This document shows positions 8,496 through 35,496 of a stretch of 35,496 nucleotides of DNA, piece after piece (position 1 is the stretch's first letter; every line of letters begins with the position of its first letter). The translations under genes were made by a program, and so were the position numbers. This DNA is from Chiloscyllium plagiosum (lineage: Eukaryota): positions 22,714,252 to 22,749,747 of the forward strand of contig NC_057719.1 in the NCBI RefSeq assembly GCF_004010195.1. The letters are read 5' to 3'. The notes below the pieces were generated by a model. The model ran no database searches. It was not told the DNA's origin and saw only the letters and a program-made list of their open reading frames with translations.

Positions 8496-8627
8496 AACAC
8501 AAACAGAAGCTGCTGGAACAGCTCAGCAGGTCTGGCAGCATCTCTGCAGAGAAACCAGAGGAGGGATCACCGGACCCAAAACGTTAACTCTAATTTTTCT
8601 TCACAGATGCCACCAGACCCACTGAGT
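8496..8627. mobile_element. Fold-back pair of Penelope-like pLTR fragments
   Basis: CTCAGCAGGTCTGGCAGCATCT ... AGATGCCACCAGACCCACTGAG inverted; central GGACCCAAAACGTTAAC is the 3' half of a decayed hammerhead. Confidence 0.7.
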
Positions 8628-9255
8628 CATACCCTCCCCTCCACCTCGCCCCCCCACCCCAGCAACCCCTGCCCTTGCTCTGTTAATTTGCATCTTTTTA
8701 TTAATTGATAAGCAGTTAAAAGGTGAATTGCTATTCAGTAGCCAACAAGGTTAACATGCGAAAGTAAGGTAATACATGCCAGTAACTCTAAATGAAGACT
8801 TAGCAACATAATATATTTATGTACATGTTTGCACAATTACAATGTTCTCCATCCTGCTGCTTCTATGTGATGCAACATTTATTGCTGGAGTGGCAATAGA
8901 AGTAGGTAAATTAGATCCTTGCTCTGATTGCAATGGTACAATTGGCTGCTGTCTTCTAAACTTTGAAAATAGGGAGGACTCGGCCAGGCAGACTGAGAAT
9001 TTGTCATCTTTTAACTACTGCTGGCCATGTGAAGGCCTTTGCTTGGAGCAAATACATGAATTAGAATTGGCAAAGTAAAAATGCAAGAACTTCACAATGA
9101 TGCCAATGATTTTACTTTACTGACTGCTGCGATTGAGTCAGCATGGCTAAATGTTTTATAATATGGGATTCAATTTTATTTAATTCTGTCAACAGGTATC
9201 TGCAGAACGCCTGTTTCCCTGTGCATTTTTGTTGACTAGAGAATGCTGAAACATC

Positions 9256-10914: not shown

Positions 10915-11008
10915 ACTCCTGATGAAGGTCTTATGCCTGAAACGTCGACTTTTCTGCCCCTCAGATGCTGCCTGACCTGCTGTGCTTTTCTAGCGCCACA
11001 CTCTGGAC
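10915..11008 (+). mobile_element. Solo Penelope-like pLTR mini-insert with hammerhead motif, 11-bp TSD
   Basis: TAATTCAGCAC at 10904-10914 and 11009-11019; CTGATGA-A-GGTC-TTAT-GCCT-GAAA-CGTC starting at 10919. Confidence 0.88.
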
Positions 11009-18261: not shown

Positions 18262-19800
18262 ACTAAAGCAAAAAAGCCTGGAAAAGCTCAGCAGGTCTGG
18301 CAGCATCTGTGAAACAGAAATCAGAATTAACGTCTCAAGACCTGTGACCCTTTTTCAGAACAAATGGTGGCAAGGAAAAAAATAGCTTCTATGCAGAATT
18401 TAGGATGTGGGCAAGGAAGTAAGGAGTAAACAACAGGTGGAGATAGAATCCAAAGTAAAAGAAGAACTGTTTGACAGATAACGGAGTGGATAATGATCAG
18501 CCTTGGACAATGAATGGCTACTACTGGGGACACTTTGTGGCTAACAATGGGTTGTGTGTAATAGCAGACCACGTGATAACAAGACATGGTATTTGGGGGT
18601 TGAGGTAAGGAAATGGGAAAAAGTGCCTCAAGCCACACAATTGCTGAACTCAAAATTGAGTCTGGAAGGCTGTAGAGTTCCCAAATGGAAAATGAGATGC
18701 TGCACTTTCAGCTTGCACTGAGCTGTGCTGGAGCACTGCAGTAAGCCTGAGACAGATTTTGGCCAGGGAACAGCATGGTATGTTAAAGTGAGACTAAAAA
18801 ACTACAGATGCTGGAATCCAAAGTAGACATATGGGAGACTGGAAGAACACAGCACGCCAGAAAGCATCAGGAAGTGGAGAAATCAACATTTTGGGTATGA
18901 CTCTTCTTCAGGAGTAGATGAGGGGGTAGGGAGAGCTACAGATAAAGAGTGTGTTGAAGTGGCAGACAACTGGAAGCTCAGGGTCTTTTCTGCAGACAGA
19001 GTGGAGGTGCTCTGCGAAGCATTCACCCAAACTACGCTCATATCCCCACTGTAGAGGAGATTACATTGTGACCGGCAAATGCAGTAGACTAAATTGAGTG
19101 AAGGAGGAGTGGACAAGGCTATCCCAGACGAAAACATCCTTGTGGAAGCCTGACAAGGAAGATGAAAGGAATATGTGTCTGGTGGTGGCATCCCACTGGA
19201 GGTATTGGAAATAGGGAGCAATGATCCTTTGGATGTGGATGTTGTTGGGATGGTAGGTGAGGATAAGGGGGAACCCTATTACTATTTTGGGAAAGAAGAA
19301 AGGGGGTAAGTGTTGGAGTGCGGGAGATGGAACAAACCTAACTGAGGGTCCTGTTAATTACATTGCTGGGAAATCCTCAGTTGAGGAAGAAGATGGATAT
19401 TTTAGAAGCCCCCTTATTGACATTGGCTTCATCAGAACAGATGTGATAGAGATGGAGGAATTGGGAGAATGGAATAGAGTCTTTACAGGAAGTGGGATGT
19501 GATCAAGGTAACTAGGAATCAGTGGGTTTGTAGTGGATATTGGTGGCCAGCCTATCCTCAGATATGGAATCAAAGATAATGAGGAAGAAAAGGGAGAAGT
19601 CAGAAATAGACCACACGATTGTGACAGCAGGGTAGAAATTGGAAGTGAAATTGATAAACTTATCCAATTCTGGATAGGAGAGGGAAATAGCACCAATATC
19701 ATCAATACACCAGAGAAAGCGTTGTGTGTGGGGATTGGAATAGGACTGGAACAAGGAATGTTTCAAGTACCCTACAAAGGGACAGGCATAACTGGGGCCC
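18262..19800 (-). mobile_element. Decayed Penelope-like retroelement: RT C-terminal part, GIY-YIG endonuclease and 3' pLTR
   Basis: GPSYACPFVGY...FLWCIDD (RT YxDD equivalent), IHYKPTDS, NLVYCICRSQCNLLYSG (GIY-YIG), QHLIFHLGTLQP; decayed hammerhead at about 18327-18360. Confidence 0.88.
18791..18948 (-). mobile_element. pLTR insert of another Penelope-like family inside the GIY-YIG region
   Basis: Decayed hammerhead CTGAAGA-agagtcataccc-AAAATgtt (minus, about 18882-18915); degenerate TSD GTATGTTAAAGTG 18778-18790 / GTGTGTTGAAGTG 18949-18961. Confidence 0.7.
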
Positions 19801-22097: not shown

Positions 22098-22257
22098 AAA
22101 ATGGCCTTATGGTCAGGGGAAAAAACAATGCCACAGAAGATTGTCAAACTTTGCTGAGAATACAAATATACTAATAATATGGGTATTGTTTATAAAACTA
22201 TGTGTTTATAAGAGAATAGAGGTTTCATTTGTTAACATACATTAGGCACAGTTCCAA

Positions 22258-22465
22258 AACGCACACAGAAATTGCTGGAGAATCTCAGCAGGTCTGACAG
22301 TATCTGTGGGAAGAAGAGTTAACGTTTTGAGTCCAGTGACACTTGATTAGAACAGTTCAATATGTTAACTCTGCTTTCTTACACCGATGTTGCCAGACCT
22401 GCTAGGTTCCTCCAGCGATTTCTGGTTTTGTTTCAGGCATCCAGCATCTGTAGCCCTTTGTTTTA
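22258..22465. mobile_element. Fold-back pair of Penelope-like pLTR fragments
   Basis: CAGAAATTGCTGGAG..AGCAGGTCTGACA..AGAGTTAAC inverted against GTTAACTCT..TGCCAGACCTGCT..CTCCAGCGATTTCTG; decayed minus-strand hammerhead next to the centre. Confidence 0.75.
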
Positions 22466-24705: not shown

Positions 24706-24882
24706 CACCTATTGTACTCTATGCTACATTCTCCCCACCCCCATCCTCCTCTAGCTTATCTCTCCACGCTTCAGGCTCTCTGCCTTTATTCCTGATGAAG
24801 GGCTTTTGCCCGAAATGTCGATTTCGCTGCTCCTTGGATGCTGCCTGAACTGCTGTGCTCTTCCAGCACCACTAATCCAGAA
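24706..24882 (+). mobile_element. Penelope-like pLTR insert in CR1 (5' end in gap)
   Basis: pLTR with hammerhead at 24792-24819; CR1 resumes at about 24880. Confidence 0.85.
24792..24819 (+). ncRNA. Minimal type-I hammerhead ribozyme motif
   Basis: CTGATGA-A-GGGC-TTTT-GCCC-GAAA-TGTC. Confidence 0.7.
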
Positions 24883-25286
24883 AAAGACCTTCATTGTCTA
24901 CCGTCTCTAATCCTCTGATCATCTTGTATGTCTCTATCAAATCCCCTTGAAGTCTTCTTCTTGCCAATGAGAACAGGTTCAAGTCTCTCAGCCTTTCCTC
25001 ATAAGACCTTCCCTCCAGACCAGGCAACATCCTGGTAAATCTCCTCTGCACATTTTCCAATGCTTCCACATCATTCCCGAAATCTGGGGACCAGAACTGT
25101 CACAATATTCCAAGTGTGGCCGCACCAGCGTTTTGCATAGTTTCAGCATGATATTGCAGCTCTGGAACTCAATCCCTCTACAAATGAAGAGAGAAAGTGA
25201 GGTCTGCAGATGCTGGAGATCAGAGCTGAAAATGTGTTGCTGGAAAAGCGCAGCAGGTCAGGCAGCATCCAAGGAACAGGAGAATC

Positions 25287-25314
25287 GACGTTTCGGGCAT
25301 AAGCCCTTCTTCAG
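25287..25314 (-). ncRNA. Minimal type-I hammerhead ribozyme motif (intact core)
   Basis: Minus strand CTGAAGA-A-GGGC-TTAT-GCCC-GAAA-CGTC. Confidence 0.78.
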
Positions 25315-25984
25315 GAATGAGGAAAGTGTGTCCAGCAGTGACCTGGGGTGTGCAGTGAGAGAGGGACTCACTGAAATCCTTGTAGAGGGAGGAAGAGAGC
25401 TTCTTCAAGGAAGGCATCCTTGTAAGAGGATTCGCAGTAGGTTAAAATCTTTGAGAGAAAGTGAGGGCTGCAGATGGCCTCCTTCTTCAAGGACCTCAAT
25501 TTCCCGCCAGACGTAGTCGACGATGCCCTCCACCGCATCTCTTCCACTTCCCGCTCCTCGGCCCTTGAGCTCCGCCCCTCCAACCGCCACCAGGACAGAA
25601 CCCCACTGGTCCTCACCTACCACCCCACCAACCTCCATGTACAATGTATCATCCGCCGTCATTTCCGCCACCTCCAAACGGACCCCACCACCAGTGATAT
25701 ATTTCCCTCCCCTCCCCTATCAGCGTTCCGAAAAGACCACTCCCTCCGTGACTCCCTTGTCAGGTCCACACAACCCACCAACCCAACCTCCACTCCTGAC
25801 ACCTTCCCCTGCAACCGCAAGANNNNNNNNNNNNNNNNNNNNNNNNNNNNNNNNNNNNNNNNNNNNNNNNNNNNNNNNNNNNNNNNNNNNNNNNNNNNNN
25901 NNNNNNNNNNNNNNNNNNNNNNNNNNNNNNNNNNNNNNNNNNNNNNNNNNNNNNNNNNNNNNNNNNNNNNNNNNNNNNNNNNNN

Positions 25985-26170
25985 CTCGAACTCAGCACCG
26001 CCTTCCTAACCTGCACTCGAACTCAGCACCGCCTTCCTAACCTGCACTCGAACTCAGCACCGCCTTCCTAACCTGCACTCGAACTCAGCACCGCCTTCCT
26101 AACCTGCACTCGAACTCAGCACCGCCTTCCTAACCTGCACTCGAACTCAGCACCGCCTTCTTACCCTGCA
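25985..26170. repeat. 31-bp tandem repeat, at least 6 copies
   Basis: CTCGAACTCAGCACCGCCTTCCTAACCTGCA starting at 25985, 26016, 26047, 26078, 26109 and 26140 (last copy has 2 mismatches). Confidence 0.95.
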
Positions 26171-26319
26171 ATCATCTTCCTGACCTCTCCGCCCCCACCC
26201 CACTCCGGCCTATCACCCTCACCTTGACCTCCCTCCACCTATCGCATTTCCAAAGCCCCTCCCCCAAGTCCCTCCTCCCTATCTTACATCTTAGCCTGCT
26301 GGACACACTTTCCTCATTC

Positions 26320-26347
26320 CTGAAGAAGGACTTATGCCCGAAACGTC
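26320..26347 (+). ncRNA. Minimal hammerhead motif (one stem II mismatch)
   Basis: CTGAAGA-A-GGAC-TTAT-GCCC-GAAA-CGTC. Confidence 0.7.
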
Positions 26348-26983
26348 GATTCTCCTGTTCCTTGGATGCTGCCTGACCTGCTGCGCTTTTCCAGCAACAC
26401 ATTTTCACCTCTACAAATGAAACCTAACACACCGTATGCCTTCTTAACAGCACTATCCACCTGGGTGGCAACTTTCAGGGATCTATGTACATGGACTCCA
26501 AGATCCCTCTGCACATCCACACCATCAAGAATCTTTCCATTGACCCAGTATTCTGCCTTCCTGTTATTCTTCCCAAAGTGCATCACCTCACATTTAGCTG
26601 CATTGAACTCTATTTGCCACCTCTCAACCCAACTCTACAGTTTATCCAAGTCCTCCTGCAACCTGTAACATTCTTCCACACTGTCCATGATTCCACTGAC
26701 TTTAGTGTCGTCTGCAAATTTACTAGTCCAACCACCTATGCCTGTGTCTAAGTCATTTATAAAAATGACTAACAGCAATGGTCCAAAAACAGATCCTTGT
26801 GGCACACCACTAGTAACCAGACTCCAGGCTGAATATTTTCCATCAACCACCACCCGCTGCCTTCTTTCAGAAAGTCAGTTTCTAATCCAAACTGTTAAAT
26901 CACTCTCAATTCCATGCCTCTGCATTTTCTCCAACAGCCTACCATGTAGAACCTTATCAAAGGCTTTACTGAAGTCCATGCAT

Positions 26984-27072
26984 TCCTGAAGAAGGGCTTA
27001 TGCCTGAAACGTCGATTCTCCTGTTGCCTGGATGCTGCCTGCCCTGCTCCGCTTTTCCAGCAACACATTTTC
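26984..27072 (+). mobile_element. Solo Penelope-like pLTR mini-insert with hammerhead, 11-bp TSD
   Basis: AGTCCATGCAT at 26973-26983 and 27073-27083; CTGAAGA-A-GGGC-TTAT-GCCT-GAAA-CGTC at 26986-27013. Confidence 0.9.
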
Positions 27073-28349
27073 AGTCCATGCATACCACGTCAACTGCCCT
27101 ACCCTTATCTACATGCTTGGTCACCTTCTCAAAAACTCAATGAGGTTTGTGAGACACGACCTGCCCTTGACGAACCTATGTTGACTATCTAAAATGAAAT
27201 TGTTGTTTGCTAGATGATTATAAATCTTATCTCTCATAATCCTTTCCAAAACCTTTCCTACAACAGAAGTAAGGCTCACTGGCCTATAATTACCTGGGTC
27301 ATCTCTACTGCCCTTCTTGAACAAGGGCACAACATTTGCAATCCTCCAGTCCTCTAGTGCCAAACCTGTAGACAATGACGACTCAAATATCAAAGCCAAA
27401 GGCTCTGTTATCTCCTCCCTAGCTTCCCAGAGAATCCTCGGATAAATCCCATCCGGCTCAGGGGACTTGTCTACTTTCATTTCTTCTCGAATTGATAACA
27501 CCTGTTCATAACTAACCTCAATCCTTTCTAGTCTAATATCTCGTACCTCATTCTTCTCCTCTACAATATTTTCCTTTTCCTGAGTGAAAACCGATGAGAA
27601 ATGCTCAATTAGCATCTCTTCAATCTCCACAGGGTCCACACTCAACTTCCCACTTCTGTCTTTGACTGGCCCTATTCCTACCCTAATCATCCTTTTATTC
27701 CTCACATAACCATAGAAAGCTTTAGGGTTCTCCTTTATTCTATTTGCTAAAGACTGCTCATGTCCTCTCTTTGCTCTTCTTAACTCTCACTTTAAACCCT
27801 TCCTAGCTGATCTGTAACTCTCCATCGCCTCATCTGAACCATCTTGCCTCATCAACACATAAGCCTCCTTCTTCTTCGTAACAAGAGATGCAATTTCTGT
27901 TGGAAACCACAGTTCCCCTACCTTATCACTTCCTCCCTGCCTGACAGGGACATAACTATCAAGGACACACAATATCTGTTCCTTAAACCAGCTCCACATT
28001 TCCATTGTCTGCATCTCCTGCATTTTGCTACACCATCCTATGCATCCTAATTCCTGCCGAATCACATTATAATTGCCCTTGCCCCATCGATAAGTCTTGA
28101 CCTGTGGCATGTACCTATCCCTTTCCATCGCTAAACCAAATGTAACTGAATTATGGGCACTCTCTCCAAAGTCCAACTGAACAAATAAAGAGTAAAAAAA
28201 ATGTTAATTCTGAAAACTCAGGGTGGAGCACAACAAACACTAGAATGGAAGGCCAGGAGTGGTGTGGAACAACTGGCAGACTGGAAAGCTGGAGCGGGAC
28301 GTGATGGCTGGCACTCTGACTCATTAACATTGATCTGTTATTGGTGAAG

Positions 28350-28452
28350 AACTAGGGTCGAGTTTTACAGGAAATATATGGAAAATTCCAATTTATTTGG
28401 CCAAAAATAAGGGGTTGACTTTTACATGAAATCGACTTGAGTATGTTCAGTA
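28350..28452. mobile_element. Degenerate Tc1/mariner (Tc2/pogo-like) terminal region
   Basis: Repeated GGGTCGA/GGGTTGAC-TTTTACA motifs ending TCGACTTGAGTATGTTCAG-TA, resembling ...CGACTTATACTCGAGTATATACGG-TA ends (from memory). Confidence 0.4.
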
Positions 28453-28637
28453 TTTTTGTTTTGGACTGAGTGGGCACGGAAATGGTAAGCATGTAACTTG
28501 GGAGAGCATAATCTATTTTTCTTGTAATGCAATGATTATCTTTGAGTCATGGCATTAAAAATTGTGACAACTACTTCTGAGCACTGTCTTTAGACCTAAT
28601 CAAGCATTTGATCAATTCAAATCAATTTGTTCGAACT

Positions 28638-30624: not shown

Positions 30625-30848
30625 TAGGCGAAACCGAGGACTGCAGATGCTGGGGATTCGAGTCCAGAGTGTGGTGCTAGAAAAGCACAGCAGGTCAAGC
30701 AGCATCCGAGGAGCAGACAAGTTGACGTTTCAGGCAAAAGCCTTTCATCAGGTCATTCCTGATGAAGGGCTGTTGCCCGAAACTTTAATTTTCCTTCTCC
30801 TTGGATGCTGCCTGTCCTGCTGTGCTTTTCTAGCACCACACTCTTGAT
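30625..30848. mobile_element. Fold-back Penelope-like pLTR pair with back-to-back hammerheads
   Basis: Perfect 29-bp inverted repeat at 30666-30694 / 30816-30844; hammerhead cores at 30724-30751 (-) and 30759-30786 (+). Confidence 0.88.
30724..30751 (-). ncRNA. Minimal hammerhead motif
   Basis: Minus strand CTGATGA-A-AGGC-TTTT-GCCT-GAAA-CGTC. Confidence 0.72.
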
Positions 30849-31207
30849 TATTAATTTGTGTACCTCCATCTTCCAGATCCCACCCTAGCTCCAATGTCTT
30901 TTACTTCTTCTAATTCCTGAACATGTTTTCATTGCCAAATTCTGTACTCAACTTTCCCACAAGCCATGTTTGAATTCTTCCAACTTGGTTTCCATTTCTG
31001 CCCTGGTGCCAAAATATTTATTATCAGAGGCACAAATGCTATCCTCGGTTACTCTTCTGCTACAAAGTTTGACATGGTACATCACACCATTCTCTTCTAA
31101 TGCCTATTTCACCTGGATGGAGCTGCGCTCAATGGTGTCTGTTGCTACTTAGACATGATCATAGAGTTACTTGCAATACTTTCACTTAATGATCCTATTG
31201 TCCCTTG

Positions 31208-32677: not shown

Positions 32678-35496
32678 TGCCACCTTGAAAGGCTTTGTGT
32701 AATCTGATGTGGTTAATACTGGGTCAGTGGTTAACATAGTTTTTAGGCTGTCAAGCGCATTTTGGCAGTCCACTGAAACTTCTTGCCCTTTTTGAACAAT
32801 TCGGTGAGTGGAGCAGCCATGCTGCTAAAGTTTAGCATAAACTTTCAGTAAAATCCATTCAATTCCAGGAACTGCAGTACTGCTTTTTTCGTCAATGGTG
32901 TGGGGAAATTCGCCAATCACTTTTGTTTTCACATCCCATGGGGCTATTCGTCCACGTCCAATAACATGGCCCAGGAAGGTGACTTGAGCATTTGCAAATT
33001 CACTTTTAGCTAGGTTTACAACCAAGCCTGCCTTCTGAAGTTGATCGAACAAGTCCGATAAATGCTGTAAATGTTCCTTCCACAAGTGACTAAAAATCAC
33101 TAGGTCATCAATGTACACCACACAGTTGGGCAATCCGACAATGACCTTATTAGTCAGTCTCTGAAATGTGGCTGGAGTGTTTTTCATACCAAATGGCATG
33201 ACTTTGAGCTGATATAGTCCAATTGGTGTTACAAAAGCCAAAATTGCCTTTGTTCTCTCTGACAGAGGTACTTGCCAATAGTCTCTGAACAAGTTCAACT
33301 TAGAAATGTAAGTTGCTTGTCATGCTTTCTCAACACAGTCCTCCAACCCTGGAATTGGATATGCGTCTGTCTTTGTAACGGCGTTGACTTTGCAAGAGTC
33401 CACATATAACCGTTGAGTACTATTTGACTTTGGCGCCATGACTACGGTGAGCTCACTGTAACTCGCTTCCACAATTAGGTTAGTACTTCCCAGTTTATTT
33501 GCCCATATCTCCCCATGTGATAATAATAACTCTTTCAGGCCATTTCAATTTTCTTGTGGAAGGTAACTCAATACTTTATCCCAATTTTTGACAACTTCCT
33601 CATTGTCCAGTTTGACTTGAGGAATGTTCAATACAGAATCCTCTGAACTTGGTTCTTCCTTCTGTGCTGTCATCATTAACACATTCTCCTCTTGTTTTCC
33701 TTCCCTATCAAAATACCTTTTGAGCATATTTACAAGACACACTCTGTGAGATTTCTTCCTGTCTGGAGTTCTTATCAAGTAGTTGACCTCACTCAATTTC
33801 CTCTCGGTTTGATAAGGTCCACTCAACCTTGCTTTTAAAGGCTCACCTGTTACTGGAAGTAACAGCAATCCCTTATTTCCAATTGCAAAATTTGTGAATT
33901 TGTGATTTCTTATCCGATTCCTTTCTCATTGTTTGCTGTGAAATTTTTAAATGCTGTCTAGCAACCTCTCCAGCTCTACTTAATCGTTCTCTAAAATTTG
34001 ACACGTAGTCCAAATGGGTAGTTTCTGAATTCTGACTTATTAATTTCTCCTTGATCAATTTTAACAGTCCTCTCATTTCATGTCCAAAAATTAATTCAAA
34101 TCAACTGAATTTGGTTGATTCATTTGGTTCATCTCTGATCGCAAAAAGTACAAATGAAACTCACTTCTCCCAATCATCTGGATAATCCTGACCATAAGCC
34201 CCCAACATGGTCTTTAGTGTTTGATGCCATCTCTCTCATGCTCCCTGTGATTCTGGTTGGTACACAGTACATTTGAGTTGCTTTATTCCAAAGTTATCCA
34301 TAATGTCCTTGAATAGCTTGGATATGAAGTTTGATCCTTGATATGACTGGATCTCTATTGGTAGTCCATATCTAGTAAAAAAAATTGATTAATTCTTCTG
34401 CAACCCTTTCATCTGTGATATTGCATATTGGGATTGCTTCTGGAAATCCAGTCGATACATCCATTATTGTTACAAAATACTTATTCCCACTTTTTGTTTG
34501 AGGTAGGTGACCTATACAATCAATAAAGACTTTTGTGAAAGGTTCCTCAAATGCTGGAATAGGTATTAAAGCTGCAGGTTTTATTACTGCCTATGGTTTT
34601 CTGATTAGCTGACATGTGTGACACATCTGGCGAAATTCAACTACATCCTTGTGTAGTGCAGGCTAGTAAAATGTCCTCACCCCTAAATAACCTCCAAGTG
34701 GTAGCTCATATGCCACTTGCAGCACCTCTGTTCTATACCCTACTGGGAAAGCAATTTGATGAATCTGGCGAAATCAACTACATCCTTGTGTAGTGCAGGC
34801 TAGTAAAATGTCCTCACCCCTAAATAACCTCCAAGTGGTAGCTCATATGCCACTTGCAGCACCTCTGTTCTATACCCTACTGGGAAAGCAATTTGATGAA
34901 CCTCTGCCCATTTCTCATCTGCTTGAATGTGTGATGGCCTCCATTTCCTCATTAAGACATCATTTGTTAAGTAATAAAAACAGAAATGCATTCACTCTCC
35001 TCTTTATATGTCTTTTGATACAACTGTTTAAACTTCTCATCTTTCTACTGTAACTCGATCAGCTCAGCAGAGCTAAAGATACTTACATGTTTACCTATTT
35101 GCTCTTGCTCTGTCCCACATACTTGACCAAAAAAAAGTCTCAGATAAAGCTATGTCAACCTCCTTATCTGTGCCTTTTAATCTGTCCTGCTTCAACTTAT
35201 GCCTCTGTGATCTTGAGATCACACAATCAGGGAAAGAATTCCTGAATAGGCATCATGTCTTCAGATGCCTGCATCCCCACTGACTTGTCAACTAGAGTAG
35301 GCAACACGCCTACTGGTGAATCAGCTGTATCAATTGCAAGGATAAATTGTATTCCTGAAGCTGAGAGTTCGTACAGTACTCCAACCACAAATTCTTCACT
35401 CTTCTCTGGACTCTCTAGCCTCACTTTACATAATTGAGCACTTCTTGTCTCACCATGAATTCCTGTTACCAGTACCTTTTCTGGCAATAGTCCCTC
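32678..35496 (-). mobile_element. Decayed Ty3/gypsy LTR retrotransposon pol, Gmr1-like (protease-integrase-RT-RNase H order)
   Basis: Minus-strand order: protease C-terminus (35227-35487), integrase Zn region (34800-34991), integrase core, GPY motif (33545-33868), RT MPFGMKN..YIDD (32825-33298), RNase H start (PVL..DYTKPFKVAI); many stops and frameshifts. Confidence 0.92.
34625..34899. repeat. Near-perfect ~138-bp tandem duplication
   Basis: 34625-34762 and 34763-34899 differ by a single-base indel. Confidence 0.9.

Follow-up and report, generated by a model that had tools for sequence, protein, structure and literature searches.

Identity of the insert and of the element from which it derives

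Within the 35,496 nucleotides analyzed here (the window), a short insert of 89 nt is found on the plus strand at 26984..27072. It corresponds to the solo 3' module of a Penelope-like pLTR that stops at the upstream 3' end site, and we placed it in subfamily B (the subfamily letters A to D are labels coined in this analysis). The insert is bounded by two exact copies of the 11-mer AGTCCATGCAT, at 26973..26983 on the left and 27073..27083 on the right (both on the plus strand), a match that would occur by chance with a probability of about 1e-4, given the nearby registers scanned. The duplicated site is present once in two other CR1 copies of the window. The host is the reverse transcriptase (RT) region of a CR1 ORF2 on the minus strand (26408..28600), which carries stops and a frameshift besides the insert. 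The minus-strand translation of the flanks places the insertion in the VDV-x-MDFSKAFDKV motif of the CR1 RT, and two stop-free pieces of these flanks match RVT_1, both below the curated cut-off. We number positions from the first C of CTGANGA as +1, the preceding base being -1. On this scale the start of the insert lies between -5 and -2, an ambiguity that arises because the final CAT of the target site duplication (TSD) matches the element, at -5..-3, as well. The original prediction of an 89-bp insert with a TSD inside a CR1 RT, beginning 2-5 nt before CTGAAGA, was thus borne out on both counts by the exact 11-nt duplication, the RT motif in the flanks and the position of the start. The insert is 93.5% identical to 26315-26407 and 94.7% to 25319-25226, and its inverted-repeat relative is situated 600 nt upstream. 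Between 24706 and 27083 a single CR1 copy was apparently hit by three separate Penelope-like element (PLE) insertions within 2.4 kb.

The larger of the subfamily B insertions (25189..26407, plus strand, 1.2 kb, with a 14-nt TSD) was used as the reference for the reads described below. It is composed of an inverted arm with a tail (25338 to 25189), with its 5' break at -24, an inverted piece from behind the pLTR (25476 to 25339), and a forward unit with the linker between RT and endonuclease (EN) followed by the pLTR (25477-26407). This forward unit ends in the same module as the insert at 26984. The layout is that of two template switches: copying of the inverted arm goes from the end of the tail as far as -24, resumes about 113 nt beyond the tail and returns to the middle of the tail, the product being then joined to the forward RT-EN linker. 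A near-perfect tandem array of six 31-nt units (25985-26170) lies inside the pLTR beside an assembly gap, and may be either a genuine amplification or an effect of the assembly.

The piece of open reading frame in 25477-26407 gave six protein matches among 127 candidates, 66-81% identical, five of them named as carpet-shark proteins. Since these proteins carry an RT, a C-x4-C-x2-C linker and a GIY-YIG domain, the element is, judging by its homologs, an EN+ Penelope-like element, and the 26984 insert a fragment of its pLTR. In Pfam searches, GIY-YIG of the protein P0002 scored above the cut-off while its RVT_1 match was weak, and the PLE fragment of the window gave no match. The clade is probably Neptune, with Nematis as the alternative: Neptune is recognized by CX2-5CxxC in the RT-EN linker, and the homologs P0002 and P0003 have C-x4-C-x2-C, the window's own frame ending at the assembly gap past the first Cys of the motif. 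Exact TSDs of 11, 11 and 14 nt were found at three of the six insertions tested, and exact duplications were absent at the other three, all of them fold-backs. Of the arms, only the inverted ones at 25189 and 30630 carry the tail. The window also contains close direct duplications at 34634-34903 (133 nt, 98%) and 2338-2682 (59 nt, 93%). As for copies elsewhere, two pattern scans of viral_contigs and a long pattern run against metagenome and genome contigs gave zero matches. A shorter pattern matched 119 and 101 loci, which we took as chance, the best 15 of the 220 reaching only 19-23 bits, nearly all of it around the seed.

A predicted hammerhead with a palindrome at its cut site

The 5'-most 36 nt of the module are a predicted minimal type I hammerhead motif (26982..27017, plus strand) with the architecture described in PMC4209133. 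From 5' to 3' it consists of the first strand of stem I (26982-85), the core CTGAAGA (26986-92) followed by an extra A, stem II (26994-27005), GAAA (27006-09), the ACGT palindrome (27009-12), a predicted cut between 27013 and 27014, and the second strand of stem I (27014-17). By its sequence the motif would qualify as a minimal type I hammerhead. Over 11 aligned copies of the window, 78% of the cells pair as predicted, against 15-51% when the partners are slid; this pairing does not exceed that of the shuffle control (reached in 196 of 500 shuffles). The A15.1-U16.1 pair is kept in all 11 copies. Stem I spans -4 to -1, so that position -4 is the 5' edge of the hammerhead; A(-4) pairs with U1.4 in 8/11 copies, and one pair of the stem is mismatched, also in 8/11, with a pyrimidine mismatch at -3 in most. 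Searches with Rfam gave no hammerhead match at the gathering score across the window, CTGANGA by itself is not enriched in it (33 against 26 +/- 5), and as a monomer the module folds no better than shuffles (z -0.5 to -0.7).

The predicted cut site lies within a 6-nt palindrome (27011-27016), which is found in all copies and co-varies between families. It pairs in 94% of the cells with four double changes, and 27 of 500 shuffles reach its covariation score; CpG decay and the constraints of stem I could explain part of this signal. In two-strand folds, with energies computed without stem I, the palindrome (GUCGAU, GUCGAC, GUUAAC) was favoured over the catalytic ACGU dimer in four of five copies, by about 3 kcal/mol in both B copies. 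According to these models, the palindrome could form an inactive dimer. If real, it would provide a reason for a template that stays uncut.

5' ends of the copies in the window

We have surveyed the window with a profile and two motif scans, and obtained 13 arms with the conserved 3' motif after dropping one match that was a false match to CR1. Eleven of them reach the core, and two begin 3' of it (22386, 8542). The original prediction was that 5' breakpoints cluster just upstream of the core. Actually, six of the 11 core-reaching arms start within -6..+3 (26986, 10919, 30759, 30751, 22354 and 8556), corresponding to five of nine events in three families. The clustering therefore holds for a good part of the copies but is not universal: one inverted arm (core 25314) breaks at -24 (25338), and four long copies (cores 26320, 24792, 18911 and probably 18358) extend further upstream. 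Among the latter are a subfamily A pLTR (24706..24879, plus strand), whose sequence before the core is at least 86 nt long and is cut off by an assembly gap, and an old copy (18780..19200, minus strand) with a GIY-YIG remnant upstream of its core at 18911.

The other solo insert, of subfamily C (10915..11008, plus strand, 94 nt), is flanked by TAATTCAGCAC at 10904-14 and 11009-19 and has its start at -4, which microhomology could move as far as -5. In the head-to-head fold-back at 30630..30850 both arms terminate at the core, the minus arm, which bears the tail, at -1 and the plus arm at -6..-4. The 10915 insert and the centre of this fold-back had been predicted to break at the same position, which is correct within about 6 nt only, the two arms of the fold-back being different from each other. 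Two old fold-backs belong to family D, for which the starts are approximate since they are based on one long D copy. In the one at 22255..22465 the minus arm starts at about -4 and the plus arm near GAAA, and in that at 8496..8640 the plus arm starts at +1..+3 and the minus arm some 2 nt beyond the cut site, on its 3' side.

Assuming a loss of 10% per 8 nt, the binomial P was 0.001 for the arms and 0.002 for five of nine events; at the highest background loss it was 0.12, not significant. Since the window was chosen after the fact, the census is only suggestive on its own.

Read depth around the core in public data

Out of 24 runs, four were aligned to the reference 26180-26419 at 90% likeness. 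They represent three organisms, A (X1), B (X21 and X11) and C (X14), and the species of the window may or may not be among them. X21 consists of raw single-cell RNA reads (1443 aligned), while X14 and X11 are contigs. The reads of X21 come from both strands and are for this reason most likely largely intronic. In this run the depth fell from 459 at +5 in the core to 114 at -10, i.e. about 75% of the core-bearing reads end within a zone of 14 nt and about a quarter continue upstream. The loss at the bin boundary of -4 was 0.65 on each strand, when the other 23 steps had a median of 0.10 and a maximum of 0.26. The bins of the core and of stem II had raised losses of 0.15-0.26, and at the GUC cut site the loss was 0.10, equal to the background. 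Among the 24 rows listed of 720, the upstream loose ends had their mode at -4 (84 reads), followed by -3 (37), and none was at the cut site. The 84 reads listed at -4 are part of about 345 lost, so that the pile is not confined to one base.

In X14, -4 was again the top upstream row, with 72 contig loose ends and a step of 0.51. The flanks at this position agreed with each other at 0.33 and had 26/30 A/T letters, like simulated unrelated host flanks. X11 had a step of 0.47 with saturated counts and no row listed at -4, and the step of X1 (0.31) did not stand out, with no row at -4 among the six listed. Thus, the reads of two of the three organisms confirm that 5' ends are enriched immediately before the core, in the interval of about 10 nt before CTGANGA where this had been predicted (65% loss at -4 against a median of 10%). 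At the other side of the module the 3' loose ends were heterogeneous at reference 26401-26407 and fell in two classes in all four runs. A joint with the opposite strand (reference 26316/26327, -4 to +8) was also seen in all four runs, by 9 RNA reads with 9 different starts in the RNA data, and other joints connect 26349-50, just past the cut site, back to -4 with AG in between.

An uncut template and the origin of the boundary

Type I hammerheads cut 3' of their core. A cut template would yield copies devoid of the core and, because no pile of ends appears at +29, the RNA that was copied was uncut or religated. The suggestion that reverse transcription reads an uncleaved ribozyme is in this way upheld by the reads, religation included.

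Why the ends gather at the 5' edge is a different matter. An RNA end at about -4 is the cause that we favour, and we attach to it an even chance of being right. By this reading, an endonuclease of the element would cut the target with the stagger of 11-14 nt seen in the TSDs, and the RT would start inside the RNA, either about 88 nt past the core or at the end of the tail of about 38 nt. The fixed 3' ends are observed, and priming at internal sites would follow the example of PMC11167929. The hammerhead between the start points would stay uncut and its core would be copied, as indirectly indicated by the lack of ends at GUC. The RT would then run off the 5' end of an abundant RNA beginning near -4, the position at which the copies are seen to end. 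This RNA end could be a transcription start, or the product of trimming back to a folded or protein-bound ribozyme. The end of the cDNA would be joined to the target through a few nucleotides of microhomology. Because the RT would start inside the RNA and near the 5' end of the transcript, short run-off cDNAs with two fixed ends are to be expected, and copies of this kind are indeed observed. If both target strands are primed, two such cDNAs may be joined head to head and give the fold-backs, and the long copies might arise when longer transcripts are primed in their downstream pLTR. Twin priming, stalling of exonucleases at structured RNA and cap-derived G are all general concepts.

Families A and B have an initiator-like YYANWYY with its A at -4, a weak signal that occurs 11.7 times per kb in the window, is mostly forced by stem I and is absent from the D copies. 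Several data speak against an RNA end. The reads list no site of many molecule starts, which the type of library could hardly show, and the starts in the window are spread from -6 to +3, equally suiting a drop-off of the RT. A splice-acceptor-like site at -26 also counts against an end at -4. In Drosophila virilis the transcription start precedes the hammerhead by about 120 nt, and an intron separates the two (PMC2377424, PMC4209133); specifically, there are 46 nt from the start to a 75-nt intron (PMC2377424) that ends at helix I (PMC4209133). Pyrimidine tracts followed by TAG, resembling a 3' splice site, precede the core by 25-35 nt in three families of the window (26270-26295, about 24751-24756, and 18937). 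In the inverted arm at 25338 the break comes one base past the TAG of such a tract. No spliced joint was listed in the reads of the four runs.

Several specific sources for an end at this place were considered and discarded. A cap-derived extra G at -5 was suggested by the X14 consensus, which ends in G, as about 7% of random sets do; it is missing from the window copies. By inspection, neither a stem III nor a stem I could be drawn for a second ribozyme cutting at -4. There is no AG for a splice acceptor at -4, and the ACGT at +28, which might pass for a DPE, is accounted for by the palindrome of the hammerhead.

Alternatively, as put forward in the original prediction, the RNA may continue upstream and the RT stall, dissociate or switch template after the uncut hammerhead, for instance at a bound protein of the element or at a dimer junction. 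We regard this as possible, if clearly on the unlikely side. The present data fit a stop of the RT and an end of the RNA alike. It predicts the same pile at -6..+3, and the spread of some ten bases and the raised loss of 0.15-0.26 across core and stem II fit it, as do the fold-back joints at -4 in all four runs. Besides, the protein of an anole PLE binds the hammerhead region and assists its hammerhead (PMC11167929). However, a stop by structured RNA is expected 3' of a stem, not once the stem has been copied, and at -4 no structure would be left to stop the RT because stems I and II have already been unwound by it. Stem II is merely 4 bp long, the module folds no better than its shuffles (z -0.5 to -0.7), and about 25% of the core-bearing reads continue upstream. 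According to the text of PMC11167929, the anole RT, of another clade, reads through its hammerhead in vitro. There the core lies just before the start of the ORF and the length of the product follows the 5' end of templates tiled from -126, which argues against an intrinsic stop behind the ribozyme. Mutants of that hammerhead gave the same band and normal insertion, unprocessed RNA being the main substrate (PMC11167929).

The remaining explanations are unlikely even when taken jointly. Among them, sequence-guided joining, in which the ATT of -4..-2 would be where cDNAs of any length are trimmed or anneal to the target, through endonuclease preference or microhomology, seems improbable. The anole endonuclease favours 5'-ATT-3' (PMC11167929), and the 26973 insert uses the 3-nt microhomology CAT. 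But a second ATT, 33 nt further 3' (reference 26349-51) and copied first, shows no step (0.09-0.10), and ATT is lacking at -4 in families C and D and in the old 18911 copy, although arms of C and D do start at this position. We find marginally less probable still that a few non-autonomous mini-masters, truncated at -4 by chance, were recopied often, so that the pile would reflect ancestry. Non-autonomous pLTR derivatives do exist (bioRxiv 10.64898/2026.07.22.740005) and unit-length copies are very abundant in the reads, but the same boundary is found in three families, with both types of 3' end and in differently built fold-backs, and the flanks at -4 differ among copies, sharing no transduced sequence from a master. 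As for a SINE-like family, defined by its own promoter and short masters, the initiator-like motif is weak and not universal and a common master flank was absent.

Least of all do we believe that the pile is an artefact of alignment, in which untruncated copies of other subfamilies are clipped because all share sequence only from -4 on. It is true that A and B lose their similarity exactly upstream of -4, which would let clipped A copies mimic breakpoints; the consensus of the X21 loose ends agrees with A upstream at 19/30 letters, and X1, with 48% of other-type cores, has the weak step. Nevertheless, only 48 of the 459 X21 reads had another (A/C-type) core, and, judging by simulated mixtures, A would contribute about 10-15% of the ends in X21 and 0-5% in X14. 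Three subfamilies at 15% each would give an agreement of about 0.43, when 0.36 (X21) and 0.33 (X14) were observed. Since few other-type cores, a low simulated share of A and a low agreement of the flanks were found, the pile at -4 consists mostly of real junctions to unrelated flanks. The solo inserts of the window are, moreover, bounded by exact TSDs.

Returning to an RNA end at about -4, we propose, as a doubtful extension, that the hammerhead could act mainly as an uncut structural 5' boundary. Folded or bound by protein, it would set the 5' end of an RNA of roughly 92/130 nt, either because it protects this RNA from 5' decay or because it brings a start of its own. Together with internal priming of the RT, this would give from each pLTR a unit-length mini-retroelement with copies that may move again. 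As such a boundary, the motif might perhaps be held inactive by the cut-site palindrome.

Significance of a fixed 5' boundary

The types of element and of ribozyme described here are already known, and the use of an uncut template is in print for the Poseidon element of the anole (PMC11167929), where hammerhead cleavage was dispensable in vitro. The role of the hammerhead in endonuclease-bearing PLEs has been presented as an open question (PMC8557442). Our data indicate that the fixed 5' boundary at the edge of the ribozyme is real and reproducible. A literature search, with most subscription journals and the Repbase notes outside its coverage, found no report of 5' ends clustered at the edge of a hammerhead; Fig. 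S2 of PMC11167929, on the genomic ends of this region, may bear on the novelty of the boundary. A boundary at the 5' edge of the ribozyme with none at the cut site provides in vivo fossil evidence for an uncut template, and -4 offers a single nucleotide at which an RT stop or the end of an RNA may be sought. The boundary would also account for the huge numbers of same-sized stubs and fold-backs in shark genomes.

Comparison with known systems

The predicted motif resembles the minimal hammerheads of the pLTRs of metazoan PLEs (Cervera and de la Pena, 2014, PMC4209133) in the CUGANGA...GAAA core, the extra nucleotide before stem II, G10.1-C11.1, the palindromic 15.2-16.2 without a loop III and the short stem I, and also in that most are dispersed single motifs, ascribed there to truncated PLEs. 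Stem II is here only 4-5 bp, and the text of PMC4209133 maps no insertion ends and reports no 5' boundary at stem I. The closest likeness in mechanism is with the anole Poseidon PAc (Frangieh et al., 2024, PMC11167929), where two internal RT start sites define an optional tail, both target strands are primed, and uncut RNA is the main template with cleavage dispensable. It belongs to a different clade, the CxxxxCxxC linker here being Neptune-like, and its cDNA runs through the hammerhead to the end of the template, with no preferred 5' end at the ribozyme given in the text. Other EN+ PLEs (PMC8557442, PMC3846280) share with the copies described here a heavy 5' truncation, head-to-head inverted pLTRs, a tail of 30-40 nt on one arm, TSDs of about 8-14 nt and microhomology at the 5' junctions. 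In those works the truncation is called variable, whereas here about three quarters of the core-bearing reads stop in the 14-nt zone.

Non-LTR retrozymes (bioRxiv 10.64898/2026.07.22.740005) are likewise non-coding sequences derived from pLTRs with a type I hammerhead and dispersed monomers. They are described as tandem and thought to be cut from ribozyme to ribozyme; here the copies are solo or head to head, flanked by TSDs and with ends off the cut site. We have discarded a retrozyme at this locus: the copies of the window are solo, head to head or the termini of long elements, with no head-to-tail tandems, and the reads show only the background loss at the cut site, with no loose ends there among the rows listed. 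In R2 and L1Tc, the HDV-like ribozyme cuts at its own 5' edge. The type I hammerhead differs in cutting 28 nt inside, and for this reason cleavage cannot explain an end at -4. What these elements have in common with the copies described here is a ribozyme at the 5' limit of the unit that is inserted (PMC6765202).
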